A stretch of DNA of 50,446 nucleotides, taken from the NCBI GenBank assembly GCA_964435575.1, contig CAYSZS010000005.1:1-50446 (forward strand). The letters run 5' to 3'. Each line of letters starts with the position of its first letter. Within the stretch, counting starts at the first letter, position 1. Positions 704 through 8,500 of this stretch are shown piece by piece. The DNA comes from an uncultured Gammaproteobacteria bacterium. Its GTDB lineage: Bacteria; Patescibacteriota; Microgenomatia; UBA8517. The notes under the pieces are model-generated. The model saw only the letters and a list, made by a program, of their open reading frames with translations, did not search any database and was not told the DNA's origin. Position numbers and translations under genes: made by a program.

Positions 704-733
704 TTGACAAATATCGTAGAAAGTTTATATAAT
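704..733 (+). promoter_or_regulatory. Sigma70-like promoter for the T-box leader
   Basis: TTGACA (704-709), 18-nt spacer, TATAAT (728-733). Confidence 0.55.
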
Positions 734-739
734 ACCAAC

Positions 740-1027
740 AATTGAAAAATTGAAAAGCGTTTGCACTGGAGTCGCGATCCAGGACCCTCCTTCGCTGAAG
801 ACTACGAAGGGGAACGCTGCAGGCAAAAATGCCTGACGGGAGCACCCGTAACAGTACTAGAGAGTGTCGGAAACGGAGCTCTTGAATAACGAGAGTTATT
901 TATTCAAGTTTCTCCCGACATTAGTCGGGATTTTTGATGGATAAATAACTAAAGAAGGGTGGTACGGCGTAATTAGAGACGCCCCTTCAGTTTCTGAAGA
1001 AATTCGGAGATTGGAGGGGCGTTTTTT
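740..1027 (+). promoter_or_regulatory. T-box riboswitch leader (tRNA-sensing transcription attenuator)
   Basis: AAGGGTGGTACGGCG (955-969) matches the T-box consensus GGGUGGUACCGCG with one substitution. Antiterminator: A1 AAGGG/CCCTT, 7-nt bulge UGGUACG, A2 GCGU/ACGC. A competing terminator stem is followed by T6. Stem III-like hairpin 913-930. AGTA (853-856) and AGAGAG (859-864) boxes. Confidence 0.7.
979..1027 (+). terminator. Intrinsic terminator of the T-box leader
   Basis: 10-bp stem 979-988/1013-1022 (ACGCCCCTTC/GGAGGGGCGT), then TTTTTT 1022-1027. The 5' arm overlaps the antiterminator 3' arm. Confidence 0.7.
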
Positions 1028-1035
1028 GTTGAGTA

Positions 1036-1111
1036 TGTGCTTGTAGCTCAATGGAGTTAGAGCGCGGGACCGCAGATCCCGAGGTTGGAGGTTCGACTCC
1101 TCCCAAGCCAC
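1036..1111 (+). tRNA. Non-canonical tRNA-like gene, anticodon position reads GCA (Cys-like)
   Basis: D arm GCTC/GAGC. Anticodon stem CGGGA/TCCCG with loop CCGCAGA (C33 instead of U33). T arm GGAGG-TTCGACT-CCTCC. The acceptor pairs for only 5 bp unless T1038 is bulged. No encoded CCA. Confidence 0.5.
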
Positions 1112-1131
1112 CGAGAAAGAAGATTACTATT

Positions 1132-2141: not shown

Positions 2142-3065
2142 ATGTCTAAGGACTTTGAACCAATTCCATCAGAAATACTATTTTTAAAGGAGAAAATTTT
2201 TTCTTATGGATGCCACGTGTTTTTTGACATTGACGGAACAATCAAGGGTTCTTATACACCAGAAGCCCCTGCTGGATTCGATCCCAAACTACCCTATTTG
2301 TTAGCAACACTAAATGATATTCCTGGTATTTCAGTTGGGGTATGTACTTCCCAGTCGCCAAAAGAACTTCATTCATTTCTTTTAAGAATGGATTCTGTTA
2401 TTGATGGCAAACTTTTGAATGGACTTTCTGTTCTCGAAGACGGTCATATCCTCGTAGAAAGTGGATCGTATATGCTTACTGACTACATTAAACTTATTTC
2501 TCCAGAAGCTAAAAAACAGATAGATACTTTGAAAGCAGAGTTAAAAAGACTTTGGATTCCAGCCGATGACACTCAATTAGCTAAAGATGGTTGGGGATTT
2601 TTCCCAGGAGTAGTAACTCCTGTGGCCCTACCTGAGGGTAAATATCAAGGTGCGGTCACAATGAGTGTGTGGGAGAGGGGTCCCGATATTAATAATCCTA
2701 GCTATCAAGGACAGTATGAACCCGTAGCCGCTTTTGTATCTCAATTGGCGCAAAATTTAGGAACAGACTTAGTCGAATGTAAAGAGGCGGGTAACGGAAC
2801 TCTAAGAATTGTAGAGCAAGGAAAATCTAAAGAATCTGCACTTGCCACCTTGGCTAATCAAGGGATTATAGAACTTAAAAATACGGTTTATGTCGGTGAT
2901 GGATTAAATGATATTGCTCCTGCTCAACTTGTCACAAGCCACGGAGGAGGGTTGGTTGCAGTATCTAATGCTATTCCTGAACTGAAGGTAATGGCAACTT
3001 ATAATACTAAAAATCAGTTTAGTCATGGAGTTGTAGAAACGCTCAGTTTAATTTTATTAAGTTAA
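2142..3065 (+). CDS. HAD-superfamily phosphatase, subfamily IIB (Cof/sugar-phosphatase-like)
   Basis: Motif I FFDIDGTI, motif II VCTSQS, motif IV GDGLNDIAPA. Starts 3 nt after the upstream stop. Confidence 0.85.
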   Translation: MSKDFEPIPSEILFLKEKIFSYGCHVFFDIDGTIKGSYTPEAPAGFDPKLPYLLATLNDIPGISVGVCTSQSPKELHSFLLRMDSVIDGKLLNGLSVLEDGHILVESGSYMLTDYIKLISPEAKKQIDTLKAELKRLWIPADDTQLAKDGWGFFPGVVTPVALPEGKYQGAVTMSVWERGPDINNPSYQGQYEPVAAFVSQLAQNLGTDLVECKEAGNGTLRIVEQGKSKESALATLANQGIIELKNTVYVGDGLNDIAPAQLVTSHGGGLVAVSNAIPELKVMATYNTKNQFSHGVVETLSLILLS

Positions 3066-3069
3066 TACC

Positions 3070-4872
3070 ATGTTTACAGATATTTTCCCAAGAAAAAAAC
3101 CAATTATAGGAGTTGTTAGACTTTTACCTCTACTTGGTTATAAGGATTATCCAGGAATTGAGAAAATAACCGAGGCTGCACTTTCTGATATTCAAAAGCT
3201 TGAAAAAGCTAGCTTTGATGCTGCTTTAGTTGATAACCATACTCATCCACACGTGGTTAAATCGACTCTTGAAATGACAGCATCGTTTGCTGTGATTATG
3301 CATCAACTGGTAGAAAAGTCGAAAATTCCTATCGGAGTTCAGTTTTTAATTGACGATCCTGCAGCGTCATTGTCCATAGCCAAAGTAAGCGGGGCCTCCT
3401 TTATAAGAACAGATTTTTTTGTAGATAAAGTCAAGACTGAATATGGAGTTATGAAACCAGAAGCAAAACAGATAGTTTCTTATAGAGAGAAGATTTTTGC
3501 AGAAAATATTTTAATTCTTGCTGATGTACAGGTGAAACATGCTGAAATGTTGGATAAGAAAAAAAGCATATCAACTTCAGTCAATCAGGCTTTTTCAGCT
3601 GGAGCAGATGCAGTAATTGTAACAGGTTCGTGGACAGGTATTGCTCCAGAACTTGAAAAACTAACTAAAGCTAAAAAAGTGGCGGGAAAAAATCCTGTAT
3701 TAATTGGTAGTGGTCTTAATATAGAAAATTCAAAAGAGCTGTTAAAGATCTCTGATGGAGCTTTAGTTGGGACTGCAATTAGAAATGAATCTAGGATTAG
3801 TTTTCCTAAGGCAAAGAAACTAATAGAACAATTAAAAAAAAATTTAAAGGAGGAAAAAATGGCAAATAATGAACTAGAAGGTTTTAGGCTAATTGACCTT
3901 CAGTCATTCCTAGACTTTGAAGAAATGAAGAAGTTTTGGGAAGAAAAAGGTATTTCAGGTGTTCATTTTGGTATCTCTGGACACATGAATTTAACTTGGT
4001 ATGGCCAAAAAGATGGGGAGGAAGTGGTATGTCAGTTTGGACCGTCGCTCCAACCTTACCAAGGTTCGGACTTGCAAGGAAAGGAATCCTATGGTTATTT
4101 TCATCCTGAGAAATATGTTCGGGCTAAAGAAGTATGTAAGACGGCAAAGGGAGCGGGAATTCCTTGTCCAGATATAAATGAGGCTGGGTACGAGTCTTCT
4201 TTGACAAGAGCATGGTGTATTACCCAAAAGGCTAATGGGGAGAATCTAGATAATTATTGGGGTGAAATGGAAGAAGTTGGTAAACTAAAGGTATTACATG
4301 AGTTTGGAGGGTTTTTAGGAAAATTACACTCTATACCAACGAATGCTCACACTATACAACCAGCTGATTGGTATAAAACTAGGTTTGATCAAATTTCACA
4401 CAATTTGCAGATTTTGGGAATTTATCAACATGAAGAACTATCTGTAATAAAAGCAGTAGTTTTACCGCCTTTAATCAAAAACTGGTTGCCTTCAAAATTT
4501 ACATTAACTCACGGTGATCCGTTACAAAAAAATATTTTTATTGATACTGAAAAAGCGAAAATTACAGATGTTATCGATTGGGAGACAGCAGGAATTGGAA
4601 ATCCTTGGGCTGACGCAGTTTTGGGAGCATGGTGGATGTCGGGAGAGTGTGGCGGGAGCGAAAAAGAATATGAAGCCTTTATAAATGGTTATAACCATGG
4701 TTTATCTGATAAAATGTTATTACTTGATATAAATGCTGCAAAACGAATGAACCCGTATTTGGATGTCTTGTGGTACTTAAATATTCTTTGGGTGAGATCA
4801 CTTGTGGGTGATAACTCGCAAACTGAAAGAAGAAAGGGTATGGTCGAAAAGATATTAAATGAGTTAAATTAA
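3070..4872 (+). CDS. Fusion protein: BtpA/SgcQ-family TIM-barrel domain plus aminoglycoside/choline-kinase-like (APH) phosphotransferase domain
   Basis: The N-terminal ~260 aa match the BtpA pattern (IIGVVRLLPLLG, FIRTDFF, ADVQVKHA, VTGSWTG, IGSGL). The C-terminal part has APH motifs LTHGDPLQKNIFID and VIDWETAG. In-frame internal AAGGAGG (3847-3853) plus ATG 3859. Confidence 0.85.
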   Translation: MFTDIFPRKKPIIGVVRLLPLLGYKDYPGIEKITEAALSDIQKLEKASFDAALVDNHTHPHVVKSTLEMTASFAVIMHQLVEKSKIPIGVQFLIDDPAASLSIAKVSGASFIRTDFFVDKVKTEYGVMKPEAKQIVSYREKIFAENILILADVQVKHAEMLDKKKSISTSVNQAFSAGADAVIVTGSWTGIAPELEKLTKAKKVAGKNPVLIGSGLNIENSKELLKISDGALVGTAIRNESRISFPKAKKLIEQLKKNLKEEKMANNELEGFRLIDLQSFLDFEEMKKFWEEKGISGVHFGISGHMNLTWYGQKDGEEVVCQFGPSLQPYQGSDLQGKESYGYFHPEKYVRAKEVCKTAKGAGIPCPDINEAGYESSLTRAWCITQKANGENLDNYWGEMEEVGKLKVLHEFGGFLGKLHSIPTNAHTIQPADWYKTRFDQISHNLQILGIYQHEELSVIKAVVLPPLIKNWLPSKFTLTHGDPLQKNIFIDTEKAKITDVIDWETAGIGNPWADAVLGAWWMSGECGGSEKEYEAFINGYNHGLSDKMLLLDINAAKRMNPYLDVLWYLNILWVRSLVGDNSQTERRKGMVEKILNELN

Positions 4873-4877
4873 CTTTA

Positions 4878-5240
4878 ATGGATAATATAAAAGTGGCGCT
4901 AATCAAACCGACAATTAAATATTCCGATTTGGAAAAATAGGATATCAGGGTTGGAACTATTGAAGAAGTAATCGATATCGAAAAGTCGGATAAGTTGGTT
5001 AAGCTGATAGTCAATTTCGGCGATCACAAAAGGCAAATTATTGTCGGACTCAAAAAAGAACGGGAAAACTCCAAGGAGATTGAGGGTAAACAAGCTTTAT
5101 TTGTTGTTAATCTGGAACAAGGGGAAATAATGGGTGAAAAATCTGAAGGAATGCTTTTTGATATTGGTTATGCCGATCAAATCACACCCGTATTGGCAAT
5201 TCCCGAGAAATCTGTCCCCAACGGAGTACGAGCAGGTTAG
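4878..5240 (+). pseudogene. tRNA-binding domain protein (CsaA/Trbp111-like) interrupted by an in-frame TAG at codon 21
   Basis: MDNIKVALIKPTIKYSDLEK-TAG(4938-4940)-DIRVGTIEEV...SDKLVKL...RQIIVGL...SEGMLF matches the CsaA/EMAP OB-fold pattern across the stop. Confidence 0.7.
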
Positions 5241-5412: not shown

Positions 5413-5440
5413 TTGACATCTTGACTTGGTAGGTTATAAT
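5413..5440 (+). promoter_or_regulatory. Sigma70-like promoter upstream of rpoB
   Basis: TTGACA (5413-5418), 16-nt spacer, TATAAT (5435-5440). Confidence 0.5.
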
Positions 5441-5450
5441 CCACCATAGG

Positions 5451-5475
5451 CGTACAGAGTACGTTTGTTTTTTTT
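5451..5475 (+). terminator. Attenuator-like hairpin plus U-tract in the rpoB leader
   Basis: CGTAC-AGA-GTACG (5451-5463) followed by TTTGTTTTTTTT. The short 5-bp stem makes this weak. Confidence 0.3.
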
Positions 5476-5560: not shown

Positions 5561-8500
5561 ATGGTTGCTAAAAGAAGAAATTTTGGAAGAGAAGAAAAGA
5601 ATCTTCCTGAACTAGACTTATCACTCGTTCAGAAAGAGAGCTGGGAGTGGTTTTTGGAAGAGGGGATAAAAGACGAGCTTTCTGAAATAAATCCTATAGA
5701 CGATTTCACCGGTAAAAATTGGCAACTTGTCCTTGAAGATCCTGAGTTAGGATTAGCAAAGATAACCCCCAGAGTTTGTTCGGAAAAGGGCCTTACTTTT
5801 TCTGCACCTCTTAAAATAAAAGCAACATTAACAAGCAAAAGAACCGGCGAAAAAAGAACCCAAGAGGTATTTTTAGGTGATTTACCCCAAATGACATCAA
5901 GGGGAACTTTTATAATCAACGGGGTTGAAAGAGTGGTTATTAATCAAGTTGTCAGAAGTCCTGGGGTATACTTTTCGGGGGAACTTGATGCTTCAACCGG
6001 TCGTATGCTCCACTTTGCCGAAGTGCGTCCTATGCGTGGATCTTGGCTGGAATTCGAAGTTGATAGAAACGATATCATTTCAGCCCGCATTGACAGGAGA
6101 AGAAAAGTTGTCGCCACCGCACTCTTAAGGGCAATGGGCATTGAGTCTGACGGGGAGTTAGTTGATCTTTTTAAAGACCTGGACACGAACGAGCACCATA
6201 AGTATCTTGTCTCAACATTGGAAAAAGATCCTTCAAAGTCCAGTGAAGAAGCGCTTCTGGAAATCTACCGAAAGATGAGACCCGGAGAGCCCTCTCTATT
6301 AGAAAACGCAAAAACTCTCTTTGATGGACTTTTTTTTGATTCCAGGAGGTATGATTTGGGAAAAGTAGGACGTTTCAAGATAAATAAAAGGCTTGGTTTA
6401 AATCTTGTAAATGAAAAAACAAACTGGGTTTTAACCCGTCAAGATGTAGTAGCCACAATCTCTTATCTAATTGGCTTACAAAATGGTAAGGGGGCTGTTG
6501 ATGATATTGATCATTTGGCTAATAGACGCCTCAGACGCGTAGGCGAGCTTGTTTCGACAAATGCTTTTAGGGTCGGCCTGTTGAGGCTCGAGCGGTCGGT
6601 AAAAGAGAAAATGAGTTTAATTTCTCCTGATGATAAGCCACTTCCGGCAAACCTGATTAATGCCCGGCCTCTTATTGCGGCCCTAAACGAGTTCTTCCGT
6701 TCCAATCAATTATCGACAATTTTGGACGACACGAATCCGCTTGCTGAAATAGATAATTTGAGGCGCGTTTCTGTTCTTGGCCCCGGAGGGATAAATCGTG
6801 AGAGAGCCTCGTTTTCGATTCGTGATGTTAACTCATCCCAATATGGAAGAATTGATCCAGTAAGAACCCCCGAAGGACCCAATATTGGTCTTGTCACATA
6901 TCTTTCGCTCTACTGCCGGATTAACGAGTATGGTTTCATTGAGGCACCCCATAGAAAGGTCGAAAAGGTCAAGAGAAATGGCAAAGTTAGTGTAAAGATA
7001 AGTAACGAAATCGTTTATCTTTCCGCAGACGACGAGGAAAATTATTACATTACCCACTCCAACTTGAATATTGACGCACGAGGATATATAAAGGACAACA
7101 GGGTTCCATTTAGGCACAAAGGAACCGTTACAGAAGGACCGTTAGAACTTATTGACTTTGTTGATATCACGCCAAAGCAAGTTGTCGGCGCCTCTTCGTC
7201 CCTTATACCTTTTCTTTCGCATGACCACGGAAACCGTGCTCTTATGGGAGCAAATATGCAGTGCCAAGCAGTCCCCTTAATTTCTCCAGAATCGCCCTTG
7301 GTCGGAACCGGTATGGAGAAAGTTGTTGCGGAAGGTATGGGTAGGTTTGTAAAAGCGCTAACCGATGGAGAAATAACATATGTTGATTCTGAGAAAGTGG
7401 TGATGAGTGTGAGGAAGCCGATCGATTCACAAGAGATTCAAAACTCTGACGACATCGAGATTTCTGAGGGTGGGAAAAAGATTACTTATTATCTTACAAA
7501 ATTTAAAAGAACCGCAAACTCGACTTGCTATAACCAAATAGTTGCTGTTTCTCTGGGGCAGAAGGTCAAAAAAGGAGATCTTCTTGCAGATGGGCCTGCG
7601 GTTTATAAAGGTGAACTTGCTTTGGGCAGAAACCTTACCATAGCTTATTGCTCTTTTGAGGGTTATGGATTCGAAGACGCTATAGTAATTTCAGACAGAC
7701 TTATAAAAGAAGACCTTTTGTCTTCAATTCACATAGAAGAGTATGAGGCGGATGTTGTTGATACCAAATTAGGACAAGAGGAGCTGACCCGTGACATTCC
7801 AAATGTTGCCGAAACAGACCTTGCCAACTTAGCCGAAGACGGAATTGTTGTTAATGGGGCAGAGGTTGGTCCCAATGATATTTTAGTTGGCAAGATTGCT
7901 CCTAAGGGTGAAACCGAACTGACTGCAGAGGAACGCTTGCTTCGAGCCATATTTGGCGAGAAGGCTCGAGAGGTCAGAGATACGTCTTTGAGAGTCCCAC
8001 ACGGTGAGAGAGGGATAGTCGTCGATGTATCCATTTTGGATAGAGAAAAAGGAGACGAGTTGGGACCAGGCGTTCTTAAGAGGGTTATTGTTAAAGTTGC
8101 GCAAATGAGGAAAATTGCTGTTGGAGATAAAATAGCTGGTCGCCATGGTAATAAAGGAGTTATTGCAAAGATATTACCGGTTGCCGATATGCCTTACATG
8201 GCAGACGGAACTCCAGTCGATATCATAATTTCTCCATTATCGGTCCTTGCCCGAATGAATTTGGGTCAGCTTTTGGAGGCACATCTGGGTTGGGCTTTAT
8301 CGAAGACCGACCAAAAAGCAGCAGTTCCTGTTTTTGAGCGAGTTCCTGAAAGCTTAATTATTGAAGAACTGAGGAGTGCCGGACTTCCCTTAAACGGAAA
8401 AACGCGACTTATTGACGGGAAAACAGGTGAAGCTTTTAAAGAAGATACCGTAGTTGGGGTTGGTTATATCTTGAAGTTAAAGCATATGGTTGAGGACAAG

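Follow-up and report, generated by a model that had tools for sequence, protein, structure and literature searches.

The window, by which we mean the whole 50,446-nt stretch of contig CAYSZS010000005.1 that was analysed (positions 1 to 50,446 of the forward strand; assembly GCA_964435575.1), carries at positions 740–1027 what appears from its sequence to be an arginine-specific T-box leader that regulates by transcription attenuation and belongs to a class found mainly in the candidate phyla radiation (CPR, or Patescibacteria). We put the probability of this reading at about 0.85. The leader is preceded by a predicted promoter and followed by a gene derived from tRNA-Arg(GCG) and a protein-coding operon. 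A sequence-only reading of the same DNA, made without database searches, had already noticed a T-box here and attributed the genome to a CPR organism, and on both points we agree.

According to the proposed mechanism, transcription would start from the promoter at 704–733, and the short Stem I of the nascent RNA would show the triplet CGC (773–775), within the loop GUCGCGA, to the anticodon of tRNA-Arg (GCG, possibly ICG). Stem II, a IIA/B pseudoknot, and an extra GNAA-capped hairpin would arrange the complex, together with a long Stem III of two tiers. With uncharged tRNA-Arg, the NCCA end (A73) would pair with UGGU 960–963 and stabilise the weak antiterminator at 955–987, whereas with charged tRNA-Arg the far more stable terminator at 977–1027 would form. 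Read-through would extend the transcript into the tRNA-Arg-derived gene and then into ORF335 (an open reading frame of 335 amino acids), a HAD phosphatase, a BtpA-kinase fusion, and a tRNA-binding-domain gene. Both tRNA binding and switching are what we infer from the features described below.

Architecture of the leader in the window

All features of the leader are on the forward strand. The predicted sigma-70-type promoter (TTGACA-18-TATAAT, 704–733) agrees with the consensus in all 12 positions compared; it had earlier been described as strong. The T-box sequence AAGGGTGGTACGGCG (= AAGGGUGGUACGGCG) occupies 955–969, aligns to the T-box discriminator of Rfam, and opens a canonical antiterminator (955–987) composed of A1 (955–959/983–987, 5 bp), the 7-nt bulge UGGUACG (960–966), and A2 (967–970/979–982, 4 bp). 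This structure, which the sequence-only reading had likewise drawn, is the minimum-energy fold when the transcript stops short of the terminator's 3′ arm. The intrinsic terminator, found by both terminator scan and folding, consists of a hairpin at 977–1024 with U6 at 1022–1027; its T6 tract and its incompatibility with the antiterminator had been recognised before, when it was given as 10 bp over 979–1027, and it folds here as 24 bp over 977–1027. Bases 977–987 are common to both structures, which are therefore mutually exclusive, and in the full RNA of 951–1030 the terminator reaches −37.6 kcal/mol compared with −8.2 kcal/mol for the antiterminator. The fold of region 740–1030 as a whole had a z-score of −7.75 against shuffled sequence. 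The stretch 700–1135 was identical across 10 independent JGI (Joint Genome Institute) contigs.

The 5′ part begins with a short Stem I (756–818), which folds as a three-way junction: a 6-bp base helix (756–761, AGCGTT, with 813–818, AACGCT) encloses hairpins at 766–782 and 785–812. The junction was part of the sequence-only reading, which placed its hairpins at 768–784 and 786–811, and the atypical Stem I remarked on there proves to be a short form with a terminal-loop specifier. The specifier hairpin (766–782) has a 5-bp stem and the 7-nt loop GUCGCGA at 771–777. The inserted hairpin at 785–812 lacks a counterpart in most members of the family described below, in which loci are numbered from L001, and comparable hairpins were found in L028, L038, and L082. 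Stem II (820–835) is a 5-bp hairpin with the A-rich loop AAAAAU, for which 97.9% of the alignment cells were paired and four of four tested pairs were compensatory (36 sequences). It is followed at 837–857 by the invariant Stem IIA (CGG 837–839/CCG 846–848), the F-box-like CCGUAA (846–851), and pseudoknot IIB (loop 842–845 with 854–857), a stretch that the Rfam alignment places at the Stem IIA/F-box positions.

An extra hairpin at 860–883 consists of a closing stem, a UGU/GAG internal motif, a 2-bp stem, and a GNAA tetraloop cap (GAAA, 870–873). Five of the five pairs in its closing stem were compensatory, and its invariant inner part was used in the retrieval pattern. To our knowledge, such a GNAA-capped hairpin is not known from canonical T-boxes; we suggest that it makes a tertiary contact. 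AGUA and AGAGAG (853–864) are present as first reported, and they were considered as the S-turn and kink-turn (K-turn) boxes of Stem I, but covariation identifies them as a pseudoknot partner and the 5′ strand of the extra hairpin.

The extra hairpin is joined to Stem III by the purine-rich linker GAAUAACGAG (884–893); in its place, L002 has UGAUGA, and L003 and L004 have sequences resembling GAAUAA. In canonical T-boxes, conserved purines 5′ of Stem III touch the antiterminator (review PMC7583486), and by analogy the linker may be their equivalent. The two-tier Stem III (894–950) folds into an outer helix (894–905/939–950) and an apical G+C hairpin (913–930) followed by U5 (931–935). The apex corresponds to the hairpin that had been called Stem III-like, and the terminator scan flagged it as terminator-like. 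The apex and its U-run precede the T-box sequence and might impose a programmed pause or add a further checkpoint; we suggest a pause that gives time for tRNA capture without an elbow platform. A pairing between the apex and the extra hairpin (GUCGG with CCGAC) can be drawn in the window, but it was set aside because it is not conserved.

A permissive search of 650–1150 with RF00230 gave 34.6 bits (E = 4e-6), with model positions 1–219 aligned end to end on 751–989. The alignment was good at the discriminator, Stem IIA/F-box, and Stem II, while Stem I was shrunk from ~90 to 54 nt and two large insertions were required; by itself, this match is suggestive, not sufficient. A covariance model of the 5′ domain found a single copy in the window, at 756–886 (75.9 bits, the window having been in the seed).

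Related leaders and the assignment of the specifier

To retrieve related leaders, a pattern was built from the central part of the leader alone, covering Stem IIA and CCGTAA and, after a spacer, the invariant portion of the extra hairpin (ACGGN{4,10}CCGTAAN{8,20}TGTCGGNAACGGAG). The pattern excludes the T-box, and by our own estimate ~1.5 chance matches are expected in 596 Gb. It retrieved 75 loci in GTDB species genomes, and the named records among these include Levy-, Davies-, Gottesman-, Ames-, Blackburn-, and Woykebacteria, Microgenomates, Saccharimonadales, and ‘Patescibacteria group’. Some 40 GTDB records of the class (e.g., L010, L014–L017, L020, and L022) are third-party annotation (TPA) metagenome-assembled genomes (MAGs) titled ‘uncultured Gammaproteobacteria’ or ‘Pseudomonadales’. 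Their contigs are of a size typical of the CPR (one is a single contig of 785 kb), and these labels may be wrong.

A T-box motif was present no more than 200 nt downstream in 74 of 78 leaders; A1, the 7-nt bulge, and A2 could be parsed in 68 of the 74, and at least 58 of the 74 had an overlapping terminator. Nearly all loci share the short Stem I, Stem II, the IIA/B pseudoknot with CCGUAA, the extra GNAA hairpin, the two-tier Stem III, and the antiterminator/terminator pair. The leaders of orthologous operons (L002, L003, L004, and L096) keep the same architecture, with RF00230 scores of 34.6 bits in L002 and 38.1 bits in L004 (L003 was read by eye), and the hairpin CUGGA-GUCGCGA-UCCAG is identical in the window, L002, and L003. 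The sequence-only reading held that the T-box would be refuted by the lack of an RF00230 match at the gathering threshold together with a lack of conservation of the alternative pairing in orthologous loci; the first was indeed observed, but the antiterminator/terminator alternative is strongly conserved, since orthologous and family loci alike keep it.

The same reading proposed aligning related leaders, and the comparison revealed a covarying Stem I and a specifier. In the 36-sequence alignment, the covariation score observed for Stem II and the extra hairpin was reached in 0 of 500 shuffles, and sliding the partners destroyed the pairing. No variation was seen in Stem IIA (CGG/CCG) or in the inner portion of the extra hairpin (UGU, C-G, G-C, GNAA cap, and GAG). 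Stem I and the pseudoknot were parsed directly rather than with the pair-counting tool because a single MAFFT alignment was structurally inconsistent between subclasses; RNAfold and regular-expression parsing of Stem I misread several leaders, and the final tallies were corrected by eye. Hairpins with covarying stems were found in Stem I across 77 leaders (e.g., CUGGA/UCCAG, CCGGA/UCCGG, CUUCC/GGAAG, GUCUAU/AUAGAC, GCUUAC/GUAAGC, CCCGC/GCGGG, GUUUGG/CCAAAC, CCGAU/AUCGG, and GAGGG/CCCUC). The pairing of the Stem IIA loop with the spacer after CCGUAA also covaries (e.g., GUAC:GUAC, GUGC:GCAC, GUGA:UCAC, GCAU:AUGC, GCAA:UUGC, GUUG:CAAC, and GUC:GAC), its helices measure 3–6 bp (mean 3.39 bp, compared with 2.60 bp in shuffled spacers), and it is identified as the IIA/B pseudoknot known from T-boxes. 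Of 73 distinct leaders, 69 have the two-tier Stem III (mean z-score −4.3), in which the outer helix surrounds an apical G+C hairpin that is always followed by U5–8.

The specifier was assigned by matching loop triplets with downstream genes in the 77 leaders. CGC loops (GU-CGC-GA or the tetraloop CGC-A) occur in ~43 distinct leaders, upstream of argH, argH-argG, a cluster of an unknown gene, a HAD gene and an arginyl-tRNA synthetase (ArgRS) gene, tRNA-Arg(GCG), GNAT genes, and several unknown families. Thirteen of these loops precede argH (TIGR00838, 331 bits, above the cut-off), the argH-argG pair is that of L075 (CGC tetraloop), and the unknown-HAD-ArgRS cluster is that of L042, with a GUCGCGA loop identical to that of the window. 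CCC or CCU loops (~22 distinct leaders) precede a proB-like kinase (10), ornithine cyclodeaminase (5), pyrroline-5-carboxylate (P5C) reductase, and an ArgZ-like C-terminal domain, and UGG loops (~10 distinct leaders) precede trpE (2), trpS, and tRNA-Trp(CCA). No cross-over between the CGC, CCY, and UGG groups was seen among the annotated first genes, and no AUC loop was seen among the listed loops.

The specifier triplet occupies the 3′ part of the loop and has a purine after it, as in canonical specifier loops. The tetraloop CGCA is read as CGC because CCUA tetraloops before proB fix the register (CCU encodes proline and CUA leucine). Since the loop triplets of the family match the regulated genes, the specifier of the window was assigned to CGC (arginine) at 773–775, followed by the purines G776 and A777. 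On our own reading of the sequence, GUCGCGA also appears to have the layout of an anticodon loop (N-U-NNN-R-N), with CGC in the ‘anticodon’ place. The sequence-only reading had looked for candidates near GAA 884–886; a specifier after this GAA (UAA) was rejected, as L002 has UGAUGA there and the stretch acts as the purine-rich linker. Sensing of the adjacent tRNA (anticodon GCA, codon UGC) was also rejected, as no UGC occurs in the loop. Two leaders, L011 (~5605–5716) and L044 (reverse strand, ~7794–7909), have an AGCA tetraloop (AGC being a serine codon) before a GNAT and an argH-like lyase, and these two families otherwise sit behind CGC (Arg) leaders.

tRNA genes and the operon behind the leader

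A cognate tRNA gene lies directly after the terminator in nine loci, the window among them, covering two amino-acid specificities and two T-box architectures, and the arrangement of a T-box followed by its cognate tRNA is recurrent. Genes for tRNA-Arg(GCG) lie behind the leaders of L022 (5042–5116), L043 (2794–2868), and L054 (1832–1907; L098 repeats the L054 sequence), genes for tRNA-Trp(CCA) behind those of L037, L078, and L030 (the last without the discriminator domain), and genes for tRNA-Arg(UCU) and tRNA-Arg(UCG) behind that of L005. At L001, which is cut by the contig end, tRNA-Arg(UCU) and tRNA-Arg(GCG) (64–139) precede an ORF335 that is 80% identical to that of the window. Seven close relatives of the window operon were compared: four have tRNA-Arg between leader and ORF, and three lack it. 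The UGGU bulge pairs with A73 of the tRNA-Arg(GCG) in L022, L043, and L054 and of the tRNA-Trp in L037, forms a U·G wobble in L005, and is mismatched in L078. Locus L005 (965–1389) combines an ORF335 75% identical to that of the window with a different, more canonical T-box (48 bits), in which, by eye, GAUGA resembles a K-turn, Stem II is of the GAA/AGUA type, and CGA is the likely specifier, matching the downstream tRNA-Arg(UCG); the leader type has therefore been swapped while the order of T-box, tRNA-Arg, and ORF335 was retained. At L030 (~157–600), the UGG-loop 5′ domain has no T-box sequence or antiterminator and is followed by two hairpin-plus-U-run elements, tRNA-Trp(CCA), and trpS.

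The corresponding gene of the window (1037–1112, forward strand; Rfam, 52.5 bits), which had been noticed earlier as a non-canonical tRNA gene, derives from tRNA-Arg(GCG). ARAGORN reads the anticodon as GCA and calls tRNA-Cys because the anticodon is now GCA; the anticodon loop CCGCAGA has C32 and C33. Relative to the L001 ortholog, which has anticodon GCG, a perfect 7-bp acceptor stem, and A73, the window copy carries G36→A, has one C too many in the 3′ strand of its acceptor stem, and shows C at the place of A73. It is not an assembly error, because the stretch that holds it (700–1135) is identical in the ten independent JGI contigs. The identity set of elongator tRNA-Arg comprises C35, G36 or U36, and A73 or G73, and from what is expected of such a tRNA the window copy departs by C33, A36, the extra acceptor C, and the loss of A73. 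It can match neither the CGC specifier, as A36 faces C773, nor the UGGU bulge, as A73 is lost, and presumably it is a decaying or repurposed copy rather than the ligand of this leader.

Among the alternatives, the one that survives best, although we consider it unlikely, is that the tRNA-like gene is itself the purpose of the arrangement, either as a non-translating sensor or ligand tRNA (the C33 tRNA-Arg(GCG)) under feedback or as an RNase P/Z processing signal that frees the mRNA of its leader. The recurrence of cognate tRNA genes in the nine loci favours it, as does the finding of C32-C33 in all four intact tRNA-Arg(GCG) genes (L001, L022, L043, and L054), compared with the near-universal U33, which the tRNA-Arg(UCU, UCG, CCG) genes of those loci have. 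Three of the four lie directly behind Arg T-box terminators, the upstream region of L001 having been lost at the contig end. The window copy, moreover, still scores as a tRNA, and tRNAs co-transcribed with and cut from an mRNA are known from the E. coli tufB operon. However, the mispaired specifier position and the missing A73 of the window copy argue against such a purpose, and the relatives L002, L003, and L096 manage without a tRNA. A conserved extra pair between the base after the specifier (G) and C33 was considered and rejected, since that base is A in three loci with intact C33 tRNAs. The sample is also small and was seen at loci rather than in whole genomes. Of the metagenome scans for further tRNA-Arg(GCG) orthologs, one was empty and the other returned one contig repeating L054. 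Among the ten titles listed by a literature search on C33 tRNA-Arg, none concerned a bacterial tRNA-Arg.

Downstream of the Arg T-box terminator in L064 (reverse strand) and L069, only the 5′ half of tRNA-Arg(GCG) remains, up to CAGGCCG in its anticodon loop, followed by unrelated sequence and then an intact tRNA-binding-domain gene. Because these two loci keep only the 5′ half, decay of the tRNA copy has also occurred outside the window.

The operon of the window lies entirely on the forward strand. ORF335 (1132–2139, ending in TAG) has no match in Pfam or NCBIfam and is a member of a rare family, of which 15 clusters were found in 5.8 billion proteins; the window copy matches this family over its full length with the invariant residues kept. 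Its AlphaFold2 model (predicted local distance difference test, pLDDT, 90.7; predicted template modelling score, pTM, 0.89) resembles, in the predicted fold, domains of polysaccharide ribofuranosyltransferases that depend on phosphoribosyl pyrophosphate (PRPP); Foldseek returned 8a0m/8a0c (E = 3e-5) and 7shg (E = 9e-4) with template modelling (TM) scores of ~0.5, a probability of 1.0, and 8–12% identity, and a sequence-level search of ORF335 against PDB chains gave no match. The next gene encodes a Cof-type HAD-IIB phosphatase (2142–3065; Pfam Hydrolase_3; NCBIfam Cof subfamily, below its cut-off), homologous to the C-terminal half of a 620-aa family that also occurs behind Arg T-boxes. The notion that this Arg-regulated family is an ORF335-HAD fusion was dropped, as the homology lies in the HAD half only. 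HAD phosphatases are found repeatedly behind Arg T-boxes, at L042 as well as in the 620-aa family. The third gene (3070–4872) encodes a fusion of a BtpA/SgcQ-family TIM barrel (TIGR00259, 181 bits against a cut-off of 153) with an APH-type kinase.

The last gene, of the Trbp111/CsaA tRNA-binding-domain type (4878–5240), is interrupted by an in-frame TAG at 4938–4940, leaving open a TTG-started 81-aa ORF at 4995–5240. The L064 homolog has Leu at this position (LEK-L-DIRVG), and the same TAG is present in NCBI assembly GCA_000992365.1 and in a JGI contig. The gene is truncated or a pseudogene, because TAG is a normal stop in this genome, as the end of ORF335 indicates. In L064, the gene that comes first behind the Arg T-box encodes an intact homolog of 118 aa.

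Contigs with ORF335 homologs keep the cluster of ORF335, HAD, and BtpA-APH, of which ORF335 and BtpA form the conserved core. This core is accompanied by ornithine transcarbamylase (OTCase) and ArgRS in L006 and is divergent from ArgR in L009, and in L004 the order is Arg T-box, GNAT, ArgE/DapE-like deacylase, ORF335, and BtpA. The window operon is regarded as arginine-linked because ORF335/BtpA adjoins OTCase, ArgRS, ArgR, and ArgE-like genes in other lineages. The earlier view of the controlled unit as one without an amino-acid connection is therefore not upheld: its tRNA stems from tRNA-Arg(GCG), and its core sits beside arginine genes elsewhere. Bcs3-type and Thermobacillus composti ribofuranosyltransferases use PRPP and act with a HAD phosphatase; we would guess, with low confidence, that the operon carries out a sugar-phosphate-dependent step in the supply of arginine or arginyl-tRNA.

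Neither Pfam nor NCBIfam matches several of the genes that come first behind Arg T-boxes, namely L022 5134–5952 (~273 aa), L042 4827–6200 (reverse strand, ~458 aa), and L047 1241–2077 (reverse strand, ~275 aa), and the same holds for the N-terminal 360 aa of the 620-aa HAD fusion at L039 2114–3973. These unmatched families are candidates for arginine-related functions in the CPR. The ArgRS of L042 (2024–4333, reverse strand, 770 aa) has an N-terminal B3_4 domain of the PheRS-beta type before the class I catalytic and DALR domains. Beyond the operon, the window contains a second perfect promoter (TTGACA-16-TATAAT, 5413–5440), followed immediately by a hairpin with a long U-run (5446–5475) and by rpoB at 5561.

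A further alternative, to which we give only a slight chance, is that the window copy is a decaying relic whose leader now acts as a constitutive or leaky terminator while the operon is being lost. The tRNA without its GCG anticodon, clean acceptor stem, and A73 would fit such decay, as would the in-frame TAG, the deviations of the leader noted below, and the tRNA-Arg remnants in L064 and L069. Yet the promoter is perfect, every leader helix is intact, none of ORF335, the HAD gene, and BtpA-APH is shortened, the ten independently assembled contigs agree exactly on the leader, and the tRNA-less L002, L003, and L096 retain both leader and operon. Least probable of all, with hardly any weight in our view, is a genuine switch that senses tRNA-Ala through GCG (774–776) followed by A777: the 7-nt proline loops (UUUCCCG and CAUCCUA) use positions 4–6, which in GUCGCGA would give GCG-A, and bacterial tRNA-Ala also has A73, but the longer loops of the subclass (AGUCGCGC and AGUCGCGCC) have C after GCG while CGC is always followed by G, the CGCA tetraloops of the same gene families must read CGC by analogy with CCUA/proB, and the regulated genes are argH, argG, argS, OTCase-linked genes, and tRNA-Arg(GCG), with no alanine gene among the annotated first genes.

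Some observations weigh against an arginine-specific T-box leader in the window. GCG-A remains the other possible frame within the 7-nt loop, the window tRNA no longer matches the CGC specifier, and a cognate tRNA-Arg of the host was not seen within the 50 kb. The bulge UGGUACG departs from the family sequence UGGUACC, being one of 74, and the pseudoknot of the window contains one C·A mismatch. In the window, no S-turn was recognisable in Stem II, which is a plain hairpin there, no clear K-turn was found by eye in Stem I, and no long Stem I, internal specifier loop, or distal T-loop platform was recognised; a distal platform is taken to be absent because the 17-nt specifier hairpin is too small to hold one. 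According to published work, transcriptional T-boxes generally require an elbow platform (PMC7583486). At the Rfam gathering threshold, no T-box match was obtained in the window (34.6 against 93 bits) or in any other of the 22 leaders scanned: 20 other leaders of the class scored 26.5–42.6 bits (the 16 scanned from the pattern retrieval lying at 26–43 bits) and the more canonical L005 leader 48.1 bits, all well under the gathering score. The leader falls short of the Rfam score and lacks a canonical Stem I, but it has the T-box sequence, the competing terminator, the specifier, and the bulge by which a T-box is expected to work, and we retain the arginine-specific T-box as the best explanation.

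Wider reading and comparison with known systems

Judged from the sequences compared here, the leader is a structural variant of the T-box that is transcriptional, combines an ultrashort Stem I with an additional GNRA hairpin and a Stem III whose apex is terminator-like, and is widespread in the CPR. Taken jointly, the results may be read, at what we regard as even odds, as a T-box architecture proper to the CPR that works co-transcriptionally without an elbow platform and repeatedly controls the gene of its own ligand tRNA (including the C32-C33 tRNA-Arg(GCG), seen only there), feeding back on its synthesis, and the arginine regulon that includes ORF335/BtpA may be an undescribed route of arginyl-tRNA supply.

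CPR bacteria are generally thought unable to make amino acids. The leaders can serve as sequence-encoded amino-acid labels that assign many unknown CPR proteins, such as ORF335/HAD/BtpA-kinase, to the supply of arginine, proline, or tryptophan. About 80 CPR leaders with terminators and terminal-loop Arg, Pro, or Trp specifiers challenge current models in which transcriptional T-boxes require a long Stem I with an elbow platform to capture the tRNA quickly enough, and the same class challenges the view of the ultrashort terminal-loop form as a translational peculiarity of actinobacterial ileS. The leaders are also small natural modules that could serve structural studies and engineering.

For the protein products, the closest known systems are the ribofuranosyltransferase and HAD modules (Bcs3 of H. 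influenzae, 8a0m/8a0c; Thermobacillus composti, 7shg), which share with the window operon the predicted fold of ORF335 and an adjoining HAD gene. They differ in that the similarity reaches a TM score of only ~0.5 at 8–12% identity, and in that the context here is arginine metabolism, not capsule synthesis.

With canonical class I T-boxes (RF00230; B. subtilis tyrS and glyQS), the leader shares the T-box, an antiterminator with a 7-nt UGGN bulge opposed to a terminator, Stem III, the IIA/B pseudoknot together with an F-box that reads CCGUAA here and CCGUUA in the consensus of Rfam, and a purine-followed specifier that fits the regulated genes. In contrast to them, it has a Stem I hairpin of ~17 nt with a terminal-loop specifier in place of an internal specifier loop, a double T-loop platform, and a clear K-turn; a Stem II without an S-turn in the window; an extra GNAA hairpin; and a long two-tier Stem III with a terminator-like apex. 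The leaders of this class score 26–43 bits against a gathering score of 93, and their hosts are CPR bacteria.

The ultrashort (US) Stem I class of Sherwood, Grundy and Henkin (2015), as summarised in bioRxiv 10.1101/2023.02.28.530422 and PMC7583486, is closer in its Stem I. This class is described as having a terminal-loop specifier, acting translationally, and being actinobacterial and confined to ileS/tRNA-Ile (bioRxiv 10.1101/2023.02.28.530422). Shared features are the shortened Stem I with its terminal-loop specifier, the lack of an elbow platform, and the Stem II domain with the IIA/B pseudoknot. The US T-boxes, however, use a sequestrator/antisequestrator and serve ileS and tRNA-Ile, whereas the present class has intrinsic terminators, Arg, Pro, or Trp specifiers (with two AGC cases), and an extra hairpin, and controls biosynthetic, aminoacyl-tRNA synthetase, and tRNA genes. 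A longer Stem III is reported to give ~six-fold tighter tRNA binding (bioRxiv 10.1101/2023.02.28.530422), and by analogy this effect may be relevant to the long Stem III found here. In TBDB, the class II model is derived from Actinobacteria only and RF00230 is used otherwise (PMC7778990). The architecture described here was found neither in Rfam nor in the papers searched. A search joining T-box with CPR, Patescibacteria, or sub-phylum names returned no paper from a literature coverage that is incomplete, which is not proof of novelty.

A T-box governing the gene of its own ligand tRNA would be a circuit for which we found no description in the literature searched; the matches for a T-box upstream of a tRNA gene were only T-boxes upstream of tRNA-ligase genes, and we know of no described case of a T-box controlling the gene of the tRNA it senses. 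The nearest parallel in gene order is the E. coli operon thrU-tyrU-glyT-thrT-tufB, in which tRNA genes and a protein gene share one transcript. Both there and here, tRNA lies between a promoter or leader and the coding operon and is presumably released by RNase P and by processing at its 3′ end; the difference is that here the tRNA lies behind a riboswitch that would sense the charging of the same tRNA species.

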